DNA of 64,000 nucleotides from a virus (Duplodnaviria; Caudoviricetes), in IMG/VR virus record IMGVR_UViG_3300042291_001013; one strand, given 5' to 3'. Position numbers and translations under genes: made by a program. Below the pieces are notes generated by a model. That model did not search any database and was not told the origin of the DNA. It was given only the letters and a program-made list of their open reading frames with translations. Below are positions 7,979 through 55,581 of this stretch, one piece after another; within the stretch, counting starts at the first letter, position 1; each line of letters starts with the position of its first letter.

Positions 7979-9212
7979 TCTAGTTCGTGCCACAGAGCTA
8001 ACTGACCGTGAAGAATTCTTGTTAAAAGAATCCAAAACCTTCTGCATGTATCCTTGGATTCATTTGCATGCCTATCCCACCGGCGAAGCATATCCTTGTT
8101 GTCATGCTGAAATGAAGCCAGGCATTGTGGGCAACTGTAGAACCAACACACTAGCGGAAATATGGCAGGACCAGCCCATGCAAAAGCTACGTGCAGACAT
8201 GTTGAGCGAAACTCCCCATGCCGCCTGCACACGCTGTTATGAACAAGAAGAGTCGGGCTTTTTTAGTGGCCGTAAGAGTGCAAACAAGCATCATGGACAT
8301 CACATAAAGAAGCTGGCGGAAAATCCTTTTGAAATGACCTATTGGGATATTCGTTTCAGTAACCTATGCAACCTAAAGTGTCGTAGCTGTGGACATATCT
8401 TTAGCTCACAATGGTATCAGGATCAAGCCAAGCTGGCAGGGCCAGAATGGAAAGCTCGCAACACAGTTCTTAACTATGCTGGCCGTACAGAAACAGACAT
8501 ATGGTCGCAACTGGAGCCCCATTTAGACTATGTGGAACAGATATACTTTGCAGGTGGTGAGCCATTATTAATGGAAGAACACTACAGAATCTTGGAAGAA
8601 CTTGTTAGACGCGGCCGCTTTGATGTGCGTTTAATATACAACACCAACTTCACACACACTGATTTAAAGGGCCGTAGTGTATTTGATTACTGGAAGCAGT
8701 TTCGATCAGTAGCAGTGGGTGCTAGCCTAGACGATTCAGGCACCAGAGGCGAATACATACGCAAAGGCACTGACTGGGCTCAAGTAGAACAGAACCGCAG
8801 AGACATGTTGCGTGTGTGTCCCGAAGTGGACTTCTATATCAGCCCTACCCTGAGCATCTTGAATGCTCTGCACTTGCCGGACTTTCATCGTGACTGGGTG
8901 GAAAAGGGCTTGATTCGCGCTCAGGACTTGAATGTAAATATCCTACAAGACCCTGCATACTATAGAATAGACATAGCGCCTGCCGAATACAAAGGCGTGT
9001 TGCTGGCCCGATACCGCGAACATATTGAATGGCTTCGCAATCAAGACCCCTTGCAACGAGCCACAGTGGGTTTTGAAAGCGCCATTACTTTTATGACAGC
9101 CACAGACAATACTCATTTAATAGACTCTTTCTGGCGTAAAACACATGAGCTTGATGCCATAAGAAATGAATCAATATTGGATACAATTCCAGAATTACGA
9201 GCACTAAAATGA
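7950..9212 (+). CDS. Radical SAM protein with N-terminal SPASM/twitch domain
   Basis: CMYPW..PCC..CTRC; CNLKCRSC; AGGEP. Confidence 0.9.
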   Translation: MTQYKYNSTDLVRATELTDREEFLLKESKTFCMYPWIHLHAYPTGEAYPCCHAEMKPGIVGNCRTNTLAEIWQDQPMQKLRADMLSETPHAACTRCYEQEESGFFSGRKSANKHHGHHIKKLAENPFEMTYWDIRFSNLCNLKCRSCGHIFSSQWYQDQAKLAGPEWKARNTVLNYAGRTETDIWSQLEPHLDYVEQIYFAGGEPLLMEEHYRILEELVRRGRFDVRLIYNTNFTHTDLKGRSVFDYWKQFRSVAVGASLDDSGTRGEYIRKGTDWAQVEQNRRDMLRVCPEVDFYISPTLSILNALHLPDFHRDWVEKGLIRAQDLNVNILQDPAYYRIDIAPAEYKGVLLARYREHIEWLRNQDPLQRATVGFESAITFMTATDNTHLIDSFWRKTHELDAIRNESILDTIPELRALK

Positions 9213-39514: not shown

Positions 39515-39606
39515 TGGCGGAAGACGGAGGAGTCGAACCCCATCCCTGTTAAGAGAACCTGGTTTTCAAGGCCAGTCGCGGGACCAACCCCACTGCATCA
39601 TCTTCC
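39515..39606 (-). tRNA. tRNA-Ser(UGA), probable 8/4 fold
   Basis: Loop CTTGAAA; GGAAGATG/CGTCTTCC acceptor; 4-bp T-stem; long variable arm; G73. Confidence 0.85.
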
Positions 39607-42060: not shown

Positions 42061-42156
42061 GCTGTAATTTTTTATCTCACAAAAGAGACTCTATCCTACA
42101 GGCCGCCCATTTGTAGTTTAGAGTGATACCGGCTCTCGTTGCCATTGCACTAAATG

Positions 42157-42185
42157 AAAAACCCTGGAGTGTTTAGTTCCAGGGT
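42157..42185 (-). terminator. Intrinsic terminator of attenuator B
   Basis: ACCCTGGA-9nt-TCCAGGGT followed by TTTT. Confidence 0.85.
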
Positions 42186-42208
42186 CTTGTTGAATTTGTC
42201 AGTTACTT

Positions 42209-42343
42209 TTATGCGTAACCTGCACCTTCAATAGACCCCGACATCCCTAGAATACTATTCACGCGACCAGAGGCGTGTGACCAGGTAAATGTTGCCTGGA
42301 GCATCGCGGGTTTTGTCGACAGTGAACGGAATGTTGTTTTCAT
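42209..42343 (-). CDS. 44-aa leader peptide B (MKTTFRSLST...GAGYA)
   Basis: Promoter and AGGA RBS upstream; stop sits in the loop of the putative antiterminator. Confidence 0.65.
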   Translation of the reverse strand: MKTTFRSLSTKPAMLQATFTWSHASGRVNSILGMSGSIEGAGYA

Positions 42344-42353
42344 CTTAAGTCCT

Positions 42354-42382
42354 ATTGTAGTTTATTTATGATTGTTTGTCAA
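42354..42382 (-). promoter_or_regulatory. Sigma70 promoter TTGACA-17-TACAAT with embedded TAAATA
   Basis: Direct sequence match. Confidence 0.85.
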
Positions 42383-43472: not shown

Positions 43473-43547
43473 TGGTAGAGCGTAGGAGAGTCGAACTCCT
43501 CTTATGCGGATGAAAACCGCATGTCCTAACCGATAGACGAACGCTCC
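43473..43547 (-). tRNA. tRNA-Glu(UUC)
   Basis: Loop TTTTCAT. Confidence 0.92.
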
Positions 43548-43553
43548 ATAGTT

Positions 43554-43813
43554 CACTATATGAAAACACATTAGGATGTTTGATAGAAGTAACAGTTTTG
43601 AACCTGCCCTACTGTGTCGTCCACAGATTTGTCTATCAACCACATTACGGGCCAACTAGATCCGGCGCGCTTCGCTCTTTCGAGTCTGCTTTCGTGTAGT
43701 CCAAGTAGAGCCTAGCCGTCACTAGGATTTAGTTCTCTACTTGGGTACCTACCGGAGTTGGTAACCCAATGCGTTTACATATAGTGCCCAGAACTGAATC
43801 TGGGTACACTATA
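43554..43813 (-). ncRNA. Unassigned ~230-260-nt multi-helix RNA
   Basis: 18/19-bp closing stem; 10-bp CCAAGTAGAG helix; GAAA tetraloop; T-loop-like GTTCAAAA. Confidence 0.7.
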
Positions 43814-43881: not shown

Positions 43882-43910
43882 AGTATAACATCTTGTGCTA
43901 TTCTGGTCAA
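43882..43910 (-). promoter_or_regulatory. Sigma70 promoter TTGACC-17-TATACT
   Basis: Direct match upstream of the ncRNA/tRNA block. Confidence 0.8.
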
Positions 43911-43920
43911 CTTGTTTTGT

Positions 43921-43945
43921 AAAAGCCCCGCCTTGTTGCAGGGTC
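43921..43945 (-). terminator. Second terminator-like hairpin below attenuator A
   Basis: CCCTGC/GCGGGG followed by CTTTT; also preceded by AAAGAC. Confidence 0.55.
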
Positions 43946-44021
43946 TTTACAAACTTTGCTGTGTTACTTCCTAACTAGTCTCTAGTATAACATGATTCCA
44001 ATTCTTTGCCTAACACATAAA

Positions 44022-44045
44022 GAAAAACCCTGCTCGGTGCAGGGT
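44022..44045 (-). terminator. Intrinsic terminator of attenuator A
   Basis: ACCCTGC-ACCGA-GCAGGGT followed by TTTT. Confidence 0.85.
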
Positions 44046-44069
44046 CTTTGTAGATGTAGTACGAAATAC

Positions 44070-44156
44070 TTACACACAAAGACCCCGAGATGGATCATAC
44101 TCACGCTCGCATGTGAATGCCATTGAATTGAGGATGATTGCGAAAGTTTGTTTCAT
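44070..44156 (-). CDS. 28-aa leaderless leader peptide A (MKQTFAIILNSMAFTCEREYDPSRGLCV)
   Basis: ATG 6 nt after TATAAT; last codons carry the anti-terminator strand. Confidence 0.65.
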   Translation of the reverse strand: MKQTFAIILNSMAFTCEREYDPSRGLCV

Positions 44157-44162
44157 AAGTGT

Positions 44163-44191
44163 ATTATATATGACAGCAGACAAAAAGTCTA
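44163..44191 (-). promoter_or_regulatory. Sigma70 promoter TAGACT-17-TATAAT
   Basis: Direct match; predicted +1 at the A of the leader ATG. Confidence 0.75.
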
Positions 44192-44204
44192 CTGTTTTGG
44201 TAAA

Positions 44205-44545
44205 ATTGGATAGGTTTATTCTGTTACGAGGAAAACCTATCAAAACCCTAGGCAGTGTTTAGGCTGCCAATGCGAACTGTTCGTCGTTTGCGTTTACGTT
44301 TTTTGCTTCTACGACCGGGAAACCCCAACCCTACGGCTTTCACATTGCCGAGCTGTCCACTCTGTTACTCTTTGCCCTGTCGAAACCATGGCAGGCCCAT
44401 TATAAAACATACTCAAACGGGTCTTTTCGCCTATCCCCGTGCCGTGGCTTGCAAGGATAGGGCTGAATATGCTTTATGGTGGACCTGGCGGGAGTCGAAC
44501 CCGCGTCCAGAACACTTTTCTCTTTGCTTCATACAGCAATAACCT
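44205..44545 (-). ncRNA. ssrA: Circularly permuted (two-piece) tmRNA, tag ANDEQFALAA
   Basis: Acceptor piece ending GGTTCGACTCCCGCCAGGTCCACCA (44477) precedes the 5' piece GGGCCTG (44398); G3-U70; tag at 44259-44291. Confidence 0.95.
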
Positions 44546-44547
44546 AT

Positions 44548-44576
44548 ATTATATTAGGCTTTCTGAATTTTGTCAA
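44548..44576 (-). promoter_or_regulatory. Consensus promoter TTGACA-17-TATAAT for tmRNA
   Basis: Perfect consensus. Confidence 0.9.
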
Positions 44577-45498
44577 CCAAACCGGCACTGAATGTGTTGG
44601 CAAATTGATCATATACTTTGGCAGTTACCTTGCGAAAAGTTTGCTCATCAGCATCGCTAAATTTAATAACACGAATGCCATCTTGCTCACAACGTGCCTT
44701 GGTAGGCTCAACTTCGGCCACAGCCACAGCACGCTCAAAACGTCCAGCTTCTAATGCCGCATCTTTCATGACCTGTTGCAGGTCTGCAGACAAGCCAGCC
44801 AAGAAGTTCTTGTTCACAATGATGTTAGTCAACAACAAGCGATGGTTGGGTTCCAAGATAGATTCAGCAACTTCGTTTTGTTGGCAAGCATAGATACGTG
44901 GCCATGAGCTTTCGCCGCCATCAATAGCACCATCTCGGATGCCTTCGGCCACACGTTCAACGTCCATCACAACTGGATCAGCGCCCAGGGCAGTCCATGT
45001 AGCGGCTGCAACTGGTGAATTTGACACACGCACTTTAACGCCGGCCATTTCACTTAGACTTGCAACGTCACGATTCATGGGCATGTTCATAAAGCCACCT
45101 GAGTAGGTAAATGCCATGCCTTTGATGTTGCTGTTCTTGGCGTAACCATCCAGCAAACTCTCGCCAATTTCACTTTCAAACACACGTGCCGCGTGATCGT
45201 GATCACGGAACAAGAAAGGCAAATCAAGTGCGTCAAGATCATTGTTGTACTTGCTGAGTACATAAGTGTACATCTGGCTCATTTCAATAGCGCCAGTGTC
45301 CATAACATCCAACAGGTTATGTTTGGTGATTGGTTCACCATGATTGTACTTGCTGGTATACTCGCTTAGAGTCAGCACTTCAATCTCAAACTGTCCTGGT
45401 GCACGGGCTTCTACTACTTCAGTAAATTTTTCAGCGGCACGAATAAAAATGTCAATAGGTTCATGGGCTAATACCCATTTGATGTGGATAGGTTTCAT
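44554..45498 (-). CDS. TRAP transporter substrate-binding protein (DctP family), no visible signal peptide
   Basis: LDLPFLFRD, GVKVRV, LGADPV, IDGGE; start may be 45528. Confidence 0.85.
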   Translation of the reverse strand: MKPIHIKWVLAHEPIDIFIRAAEKFTEVVEARAPGQFEIEVLTLSEYTSKYNHGEPITKHNLLDVMDTGAIEMSQMYTYVLSKYNNDLDALDLPFLFRDHDHAARVFESEIGESLLDGYAKNSNIKGMAFTYSGGFMNMPMNRDVASLSEMAGVKVRVSNSPVAAATWTALGADPVVMDVERVAEGIRDGAIDGGESSWPRIYACQQNEVAESILEPNHRLLLTNIIVNKNFLAGLSADLQQVMKDAALEAGRFERAVAVAEVEPTKARCEQDGIRVIKFSDADEQTFRKVTAKVYDQFANTFSAGLVDKIQKA

Positions 45499-55249: not shown

Positions 55250-55581
55250 ACACCGCGAACATCTGTGTTCAAGTTGGGTCGGTGTGTGCGGATCAAGTCA
55301 CGTTCAAATGTGTGTGCTTCAGTTTTACCGCGCATCACAGCCAAAACGTTCACAGTAAAACCGCCAGTGCCACGCTCACGCATGCACTCATACAGTGCCC
55401 AAGATTTGTCTTCGCTACGTGAGCGATACAAGTGCTTCATGCAACGAGTCATCACGCTCTTTTTCACAGTGCTTGCAGTCTTGGCAGTTACGCCAATGTA
55501 AAAATCGCTACCGCTTGTGAGCATGTAAACAATGTGAGTACGATCTGTACGTTTTTTACGGGCTACTGTTTTTGTGTTCAT
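55246..55581 (-). CDS. GIY-YIG nuclease-domain protein, leaderless
   Basis: HIVY..FYIGVT..R..H..E..LN; ATG 6 nt after TATAAT. Confidence 0.65.
   Translation of the reverse strand: MNTKTVARKKRTDRTHIVYMLTSGSDFYIGVTAKTASTVKKSVMTRCMKHLYRSRSEDKSWALYECMRERGTGGFTVNVLAVMRGKTEAHTFERDLIRTHRPNLNTDVRGV

Follow-up and report, generated by a model that had tools for sequence, protein, structure and literature searches.

In the leader-peptide attenuators of enterobacteria, such as the trpL, hisL, pheL, thrL and ilv leaders, a promoter-proximal short open reading frame (ORF) is combined with an intrinsic terminator and with an alternative hairpin that shares bases with the terminator 5' arm; once a ribosome reaches the stop codon, it hides the 5' arm of this antiterminator, and the terminator forms. 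Here we describe a locus predicted to have these traits, unit A, in a 64,000-nucleotide (nt) stretch of viral DNA (Duplodnaviria; Caudoviricetes; IMG/VR record IMGVR_UViG_3300042291_001013), hereafter the window, which clearly comes from the genome of a large uncultured phage. Unit A (around positions 43,921–44,191) stands ahead of an array of 26 transfer RNA (tRNA) genes. We give about an even chance to the reading that it is a ribosome-operated terminator switch, that is, a leader-peptide attenuator, which would boost read-through when translation is poor. All unit coordinates refer to the minus strand of the window, and the evidence throughout is sequence and predicted folding.

Unit A departs from the enterobacterial leaders in several respects. 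Its mRNA is predicted to have no 5' untranslated leader and no Shine-Dalgarno sequence, it has no regulatory codon run, its two hairpins overlap by just 2–5 nt, and its targets would be tRNAs and non-coding RNAs with a conserved promoter of their own past the terminator. It also has three segments where enterobacterial attenuators have four; since the 'protector' 1:2 pairing is missing, untranslated RNA is predicted to read through, not to terminate. Control of decoding-machinery genes by a leader peptide, as proposed here, is exemplified by pheM in the pheST attenuator of Escherichia coli, although pheM is Phe-rich and serves a synthetase operon, whereas unit A precedes phage tRNA genes and shows no codon bias. 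Leaderless initiation is familiar from the lambda cI mRNA made from PRM, in which the A of the AUG is the first transcribed base and 70S ribosomes begin translation directly; such mRNAs encode full-size regulators, whereas unit A is a mini-ORF coupled to a terminator. In a full-text literature search, neither attenuators ahead of phage tRNA genes nor attenuators with a leaderless leader were found described. In Sinorhizobium meliloti, trpL also yields a short terminated leader transcript encoding a conserved small peptide, and the released RNA (rnTrpL) and peptide (peTrpL) both act in trans (PMC6614838, PMC7298713), so that 'attenuator' and 'functional small gene' are not mutually exclusive. 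Unlike unit A, that leader senses Trp and has a normal ribosome-binding site.

Unit A opens with P1, a sigma-70-type promoter (44163–44191; 10 of 12 matches) in which TAGACT (44191–44186) lies 17 nt from TATAAT (44168–44163). An earlier note on this DNA, made from the sequence alone, had proposed this promoter, and it is conserved in homologs as TTGACT with TATAAT or TATACT. The same note had placed the transcription start at the ATG of a leaderless ORF, and the spacing agrees with this: the 28-codon ORF (44070–44156; MKQTFAIILNSMAFTCEREYDPSRGLCV, ATG at 44156–44154, TAA at 44072–44070) has the A of its ATG as the seventh base past the –10 hexamer, the hexamer-to-ATG spacing is 5–7 nt in every homolog, and no Shine-Dalgarno sequence was seen upstream of the ATG in the homologs. 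Both the promoter and the predicted leaderless start are conserved. The encoded peptide carries a conserved motif, (A)YE(R/H/S)(E/D)D..GLC.

The 3' end of the ORF runs into H1 (44040–44087), a long hairpin and candidate antiterminator whose basal 5' arm is CGGGGTCTTTGT and whose 3' arm is ACAAAGACCCTG, with the stop codon inside. Of the perfect 10-base-pair (bp) antiterminator described in the earlier note, the 5' arm GGGTCTTTGT was correctly read but misplaced (44076–44085, not 44086–44095), and the complementary arm ACAAAGACCC is at 44042–44051 as stated, overlapping the terminator. Pairing in the window exceeds the claimed 10 bp: H1 has 12 basal pairs (44087–44076 with 44051–44040) and about nine upper pairs. 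The intrinsic terminator T1 (44023–44049) follows, with AAAGACCCTGC, the loop ACCGA and GCAGGGTTTTT, that is, ACCCTGC/GCAGGGT and then TTTTTCTTT; the bases of its 5' arm are in part those of the H1 3' arm. By chance, a 64-kb window should contain roughly one or two 10-bp inverted repeats, so one such repeat is not significant alone. The fold of the unit, by comparison with 200 shuffles, beats them all (z = –3.7), and the unit must be real because its whole architecture recurs in 22 distinct contigs.

At least 22 distinct A units exist, and the set analysed comprises 22 from contigs of uncultured phages in IMG/VR and metagenomes. A protein search with the neighbouring DctP-like gene product gave 12 IMG/VR loci, two of them with the unit (L003 and L004, identical to L142 and L144), and 20 loci, the majority with a complete unit, matched a pattern for the H1 base. 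A promoter-plus-start pattern, blind to H1, recovered ten loci again and added L152, L154, L157, L158, L160 and L161, together with four units of a second type (B, below). Among the matches listed for a 3'-arm-plus-terminator pattern in metagenomes were three new units (L171, L209 and L241), and the matches listed for a 14-nt promoter pattern in IMG/VR were almost all noise. The order of parts and the position before the array are constant in all 22 units: each is co-oriented with the tRNA array and lies 200–600 nt upstream of its head, which consists of tRNA-Glu, -Tyr and -Asp genes in varying order, some preceded by tRNA-Leu genes (Leu-Leu-Glu). A two-piece transfer-messenger RNA (tmRNA) gene is frequently just upstream. 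Halogenase and PP-loop genes also lie nearby, but it is the tRNA array that the position of the unit follows. Several of the source contigs span 200–340 kb, the DNA runs containing the stretch are lake-water metagenomes, and blastn found no close relative among cultured phages, the matches being tRNA or tmRNA pieces or noise.

Several features mark the ORF as a genuine reading frame. Frame 0 is open for 25–32 codons in 22/22 units, while frame 1 is closed immediately in each of them and frame 2, as a rule, within 7–19 codons; length differences among homologs come in whole codons, and pairwise pN/pS values are mostly 0.3–0.6. On these patterns the ORF is conserved as a reading frame. Conservation is concentrated in the C-terminal half of the peptide, the N-terminal half being variable and loosely hydrophobic. 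GLC is kept by synonymous changes that break an H1 pair (GGT to GGG in L160; TGT to TGC in L157, L158 and L161), and the nucleotides GGTCTTTGT are kept in L142 although the frame over the arm differs; the arm is therefore constrained both as RNA and as codons. L134 likewise reads GGTCTTTGT in another frame, but the pattern that found L134 required that motif. In all 21 homologs that have the arm, the stop codon lies within H1, 9–18 nt past the start of the 5' arm.

Three longer ORFs in the window (76–111 amino acids) have the same promoter-to-ATG geometry, so leaderless expression looks normal for this phage. Their minus-strand ATGs, at 55581, 31663 and 24530 (111, 76 and 110 amino acids), stand 5–6 nt past a TATAAT with a good –35 hexamer; two of the three have weak GIY-YIG and DUF6552 matches, and those at 55581 and 31663 begin ATG AA(A/C) (A/C)AA AC, like units A and B.

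Within the ORF, folding predicts a further hairpin, H0 (44094–44138; ORF nt 19–63; ATCAT../..ATGAT). A mid-ORF hairpin of 4–7 bp recurs at the matching place in homologs with differing sequences (GTCATTG/CAATGAC, GTCAC/GTGAC, CCAGC/GCTGG, CCTGC/GCAGG), about 8–14 nt before the conserved TATGAG. Its fold z-scores are weak (–3.3 to +0.8), and we propose with low confidence that H0 may be a pause hairpin.

We then compared H1 and T1 as competing folds. T1 is a 6–7-bp, G+C-rich stem with a U-run, and three of its pairs show compensatory changes among 19 sequences. RNAalifold on the whole unit recovers T1 only, because the inner part of H1, uneven in length, is poorly aligned, and H1 was read from per-sequence folds: from clade to clade its upper stem changes in both length and sequence, but each of the sequences still folds as one long hairpin. 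The two hairpins share 2–5 nt, the CC(C) at the foot of T1, and this GG:CC overlap is preserved in 18/19 homologs, L142 included. For folding at the decision length, the RNA was cut at the end of the T1 3' arm, and P(T1 complete) was taken as the probability that the bottom three pairs of T1 are formed. P(T1 complete) is 0.00–0.27 for naked RNA in 17/19 sequences, all but L160 and L152, and 0.97–0.98 in 19/19 when the RNA is masked to 13 nt past the stop, as by a ribosome at the stop codon. The T1 5' arm starts more than 20 nt past the stop, beyond the ribosome footprint. On geometry and model only, ribosome position would decide whether H1 or T1 forms. The earlier suggestion that a ribosome at the stop favours termination thus agrees with the masked folding, which switches from H1 to T1, but the competition is thermodynamically marginal in most homologs.

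In the mechanism that we propose, host sigma-70 RNA polymerase would initiate at, or a few bases from, the A of the ATG, and a 70S ribosome would load at the 5'-terminal AUG and translate the 28 codons. The last codons, GGT CTT TGT, would form the 5' arm of the ~20-bp H1, with the stop codon inside it, and the H1 3' arm (ACAAAGACCC) would contribute the bottom C residues of T1. If the ribosome is at the end of the ORF while polymerase is on the U-run, H1 would be melted, T1 complete and a ~135-nt transcript released. If initiation or elongation is slow, or no ribosome is present, H1 would hold the CCC, T1 would be left without its bottom G-C pairs, and some polymerases would continue. Read-through transcripts would cross P2, T2 and P3 (below) into a structured RNA and the head of the tRNA-Glu/Tyr/Asp array.

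Directly past T1 lies P2 (43984–44012), a predicted extended –10 promoter (TAGGCA-17 nt-TGtTATACT), and it is followed by the hairpin T2 (43919–43950; GTAAAGACCCTGC...GCGGGGCTTTTAC) and by P3 (43882–43910; TTGACC, 17 nt, TATACT, with TG before the –10 hexamer). P3 is a duplicate of P2 and is predicted to drive the structured RNA and the tRNA array; T1 with P2 and T2 with P3 make up a diverged 101-nt tandem duplicate. The earlier note had cautioned that the promoter at 43882–43910 could drive the downstream RNAs independently. This caution was justified: that promoter is confirmed, and P2 too follows T1. Its further claim of tandem terminators fares less well: the second hairpin does begin with AAAGACCC, 101 nt on, but T2, a diverged T1 duplicate that also occurs in L131, L136 and L141, has one G-U pair and only four U, which pair back into the stem, and it looks like a weak terminator. 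As a side observation, the post-terminator promoters (43984–44012, 43882–43910 and homologous sites) form a distinct class with a weak –35 hexamer (TAGACC or TAGGCA) and a TGn extended –10, and their transcripts would start with a conserved AGA..C.AGTTAG.

A number of findings weigh against a ribosome-operated switch. The basal nine pairs of H1, although formed in 18/19 sequences, are invariant, with no covariation. With the U-run included, the energy gap between the H1 state (full H1) and the T1 state (H1 minus three pairs, with complete T1) is only –0.6 to +2.8 kcal/mol in homologs possessing the 5' arm, and the window, at +3.9 kcal/mol, is the strongest case; because T1 need displace just two or three terminal H1 pairs, H1 may reduce termination only modestly. 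L152, which is without the 5' arm, and L160, which has an H1 mismatch, are both predicted to terminate without a ribosome. The H1 3' arm AAAGACCC is a general terminator flank in this phage, and AAGACCC occurs 12 times in the window against 5.4 expected. In every homolog examined, P2 (consensus (T/A)GAC..., 17 nt with TGn, then TA(T/C)A(A/C)T) lies about 10–12 nt past T1, so tRNA transcription would not depend on read-through; with P2 and P3 past T1, the switch would add P1 transcripts to a basal level as a boost and could not act as an on/off gate. T2 lies in the read-through path in the window and in about five other lineages, L131, L136 and L141 among the units that have it. The combined fraction of Glu, Tyr and Asp codons (E+Y+D) is 0.11–0.20 in leaders and 0.17 in the long ORFs of the window, showing no enrichment. 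Lastly, the peptide motif is conserved, which may point to the peptide as the actual product.

We noted, for L152 (1010–1164, minus strand), that the GGGTCTTTGT arm is lost and that another 9-bp hairpin, GGTGTTACA/TGTAACACC, holds the stop codon without overlapping T1.

A second unit of this kind, module B (42155–42382), lies about 180 nt upstream of tRNA-Ala and combines TTGACA-17-TACAAT with a near-leaderless 44-amino-acid ORF, a hairpin around the stop and a terminator. In the window its H1-like hairpin has the stop codon in the apical loop and a base that overlaps the terminator; for naked RNA, P(terminator) is 0.15–0.38, and L155 behaves alike while L150, L156 and L165 do not. The post-stop motif AAGTA..TAC..CAA..AGACCC is common to A and B. 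When the window and six long loci were scanned generically for a promoter followed by a leaderless mini-ORF and then a terminator, the only matches were A and B units, every one of them directly preceding a tRNA block, with B before blocks whose composition differs between phages. By sequence comparison, A and B are paralogous units tied to tRNA blocks. The earlier note had united them partly on peptides that start MKxTF, an argument that fails, because other leaderless genes of the window share the A-rich start and begin MNTKT and MNKTN behind the same promoter geometry; the kinship itself holds through the 3' untranslated parts and the architecture.

B-type units were seen in L150, L155, L156 and L165 and also in L141 (ATG at 8132), L146 (8168) and L157 (9893). 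Their mini-ORFs of 42–44 amino acids fall into two groups, one with SWLAGY (L150, L155, L156 and L165) and the other with KP.ML...WS..F..NSI (the window, L141, L146 and L157). The terminator is followed after about 200 nt by a tRNA block that starts Gln-Ser-Ile-Cys, Ala-Trp, Ile-Trp-Gln or Trp-Arg-Ala.

The alternative that survives best, which we regard as possible if clearly the less probable, is that unit A is a stand-alone small gene: P1, the ORF and T1 would yield a 25–32-amino-acid peptide or a dual-function RNA acting in trans, H1 would be a structure for 3'-end stability or processing, its 2–5-nt overlap with T1 would be incidental, and the tRNAs would be transcribed from P2 and P3 alone. 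The surroundings of the unit suit such a gene, since a terminator precedes P1 and a promoter follows T1 in the homologs examined, giving a chain of short units, and other leaderless protein genes share the promoter geometry; both paralog types, however, are found only before tRNA blocks. Conservation of the peptide motif AYE(R/H/S)(E/D)D..GLC, a pN/pS below 1 and synonymous changes in the GLC codons also favour it, but the N-terminal half is poorly conserved and the peptide matches no protein family. In searches with three A and two B peptides, we found no NCBIfam match and no meaningful Pfam match (E up to 10), and no curated family model of operon leader peptides or of precursors of ribosomally synthesized and post-translationally modified peptides (RiPPs; PqqA, MftA) was matched. 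As for H1, it is nearly isoenergetic with T1 and L152 manages without its 5' arm; against this, a protective 3' hairpin normally lies past the stop, whereas here the ORF enters H1 by 9–18 nt in 21/21, so that every ribosome would melt it, and the GG:CC overlap with T1 is kept in 18/19, including L142 with its other frame. A precedent for trans-acting products of an attenuator exists in peTrpL and rnTrpL (PMC7298713, PMC6614838).

Two other identities were tried for the unit and set aside. For a type I toxin or RiPP precursor, family scans were empty, although no systematic search for a conserved antisense promoter was made. For a part of the tmRNA, the beta-proteobacterial Rfam tmRNA model reaches 44171 but aligns the last hairpin poorly, RNA contigs of relatives end at 44209–44220, and the unit sits 0.6–2 kb from the tmRNA in L144, L146, L161 and L137.

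It is improbable that unit A is a codon-specific attenuator in the manner of trpL or hisL, whose leader would sense the supply of the tRNAs encoded just downstream (Glu, Tyr, Asp and, where present, Leu). The core Y-E-x-(E/D)-D lies 4–10 codons before H1, where a stall would free the 5' arm, and every array opens with Glu, Tyr and Asp genes, whatever their order and sometimes after Leu-Leu; synteny by descent, however, accounts for these constant neighbours. Classical leaders are heavily enriched in their regulatory codons, whereas E+Y+D makes up 11–20% of the leader against a background of 17%, and the 'codon mirror' of the downstream tRNAs, when tested for unit A, was absent. The peptide is Cys-rich, yet tRNA-Cys is far off in L131 and L160. 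A further pattern concerns Leu. Where leaders have 4–7 Leu codons, one of the first five tRNA genes is tRNA-Leu; TTR Leu codons are present in every leader with tRNA-Leu(UAA) downstream and absent from most others; and the L148 clade, which has only Leu(UAG) downstream, uses CTN codons only. This link is only suggestive: nine clade representatives give p = 7/126, and L134 runs counter to it.

Very improbable is a non-coding element, in which the P1 transcript would be a small RNA or processing substrate (for example with H1 cut by RNase III, or as an antitermination RNA acting in cis) and the ORF tolerated but unused: nucleotide-level conservation is seen for H1 and a post-stop motif (AAGTA..GTACTAC..CAAAGACCC), in module B as well, and the 5' arm complements the AAAGACCC flank of several terminators in the phage, but frame 0 is open in 22/22, length changes come in whole codons and the ATG is fixed at the predicted transcription start.

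The ribosome-operated switch is the best supported of these readings, and the interpretation given in the earlier note is, overall, partly supported.

From 5' to 3' on the minus strand, the locus comprises a DctP-like ORF (45528–44554; Pfam DctP), a promoter, a two-piece tmRNA, unit A, a structured RNA and the 26 tRNA genes. The tmRNA promoter (44548–44576; TTGACA-17 nt-TATAAT, 12/12 consensus matches) lies within the 3' end of the DctP-like ORF. The tmRNA itself (44259–44538), circularly permuted and with the tag ANDEQFALAA, matches RF04321 with 123 bits and RF01850 with 112 bits, and the beta-proteobacterial tmRNA model spans 44171–44590. Its intervening segment (~44391–44472) is skipped in RNA contigs, and tags in homologous phages include ANDSQFALAA, ANDSVYALAA and ANDDAFLMAA. 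The last hairpin of the tmRNA unit (GATAGGTTT/AAACCTATC, then CAATTTTA; 44199–44241), located by sequence reading and RNA-contig ends, is likely, with its stem at 44241–44209 and CAATTTTA, the tmRNA 3' end or a terminator. Metatranscriptome contigs of relatives stop at 44209–44220, and depth is about 0 at 44146–44192; the contig ends fit the tmRNA 3' hairpin, so P1 would open a separate transcription unit. In the assembled contigs of relatives from four metatranscriptomes, 44052–44192 is essentially uncovered, while tmRNA pieces, tRNAs and the structured RNA are covered, and no transcript ends were obtained for the ORF region. Because these contigs are assembled and come from relatives, the empty ORF region weighs neither for nor against transcription.

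The structured RNA, of about 208 nt (43569–43776, minus strand), lies between P3 and tRNA-Glu, inside an inverted repeat (43554–43575/43765–43786), and has high depth in metatranscriptome contigs. A circular or permuted form is suggested by one RNA contig, in which 43569 is joined back to 43776 through six additional letters; a second contig exactly skips 43571–43772, so that the structured RNA is absent there. An Rfam search (E up to 1) gave no match for it. The tRNA array begins with tRNA-Glu(UUC) (43473–43547), followed by Tyr, Asp, Asp, Cys and Met. Further along, between tRNA-Val and tRNA-Pro (39519–39606, minus strand), is a sub-threshold Rfam match to tRNA-Sec (36.9 bits against a gathering score of 47) with no ARAGORN call.

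Phage tRNA arrays are usually regarded as constitutive cargo. If the proposed switch is real, unit A would be the first attenuator on a leaderless mRNA and would report 70S loading instead of 30S/Shine-Dalgarno initiation. The unit is small (~250 nt) and has sigma-70-type hexamers and an intrinsic terminator, so it could be studied in vitro without the uncultured phage. If the peptide is instead the product, it would be a small early protein conserved in a widespread lineage of lake phages and made from an mRNA of unusual design. More broadly, and with somewhat less than even confidence, we propose that the tRNA arrays of giant freshwater phages may be headed by a sensor of translational capacity, in the form of a leaderless mini-gene that reports whether 70S ribosomes load in time and run to the stop. 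When ribosomes fail to do so, a strong promoter would read through into the tRNA genes, and with module B before the next block the supply of decoding RNAs would follow ribosome speed. Such a phage would gauge translation and top up its own tRNAs, which would offer a handle on why large phages carry tRNAs and tmRNA.

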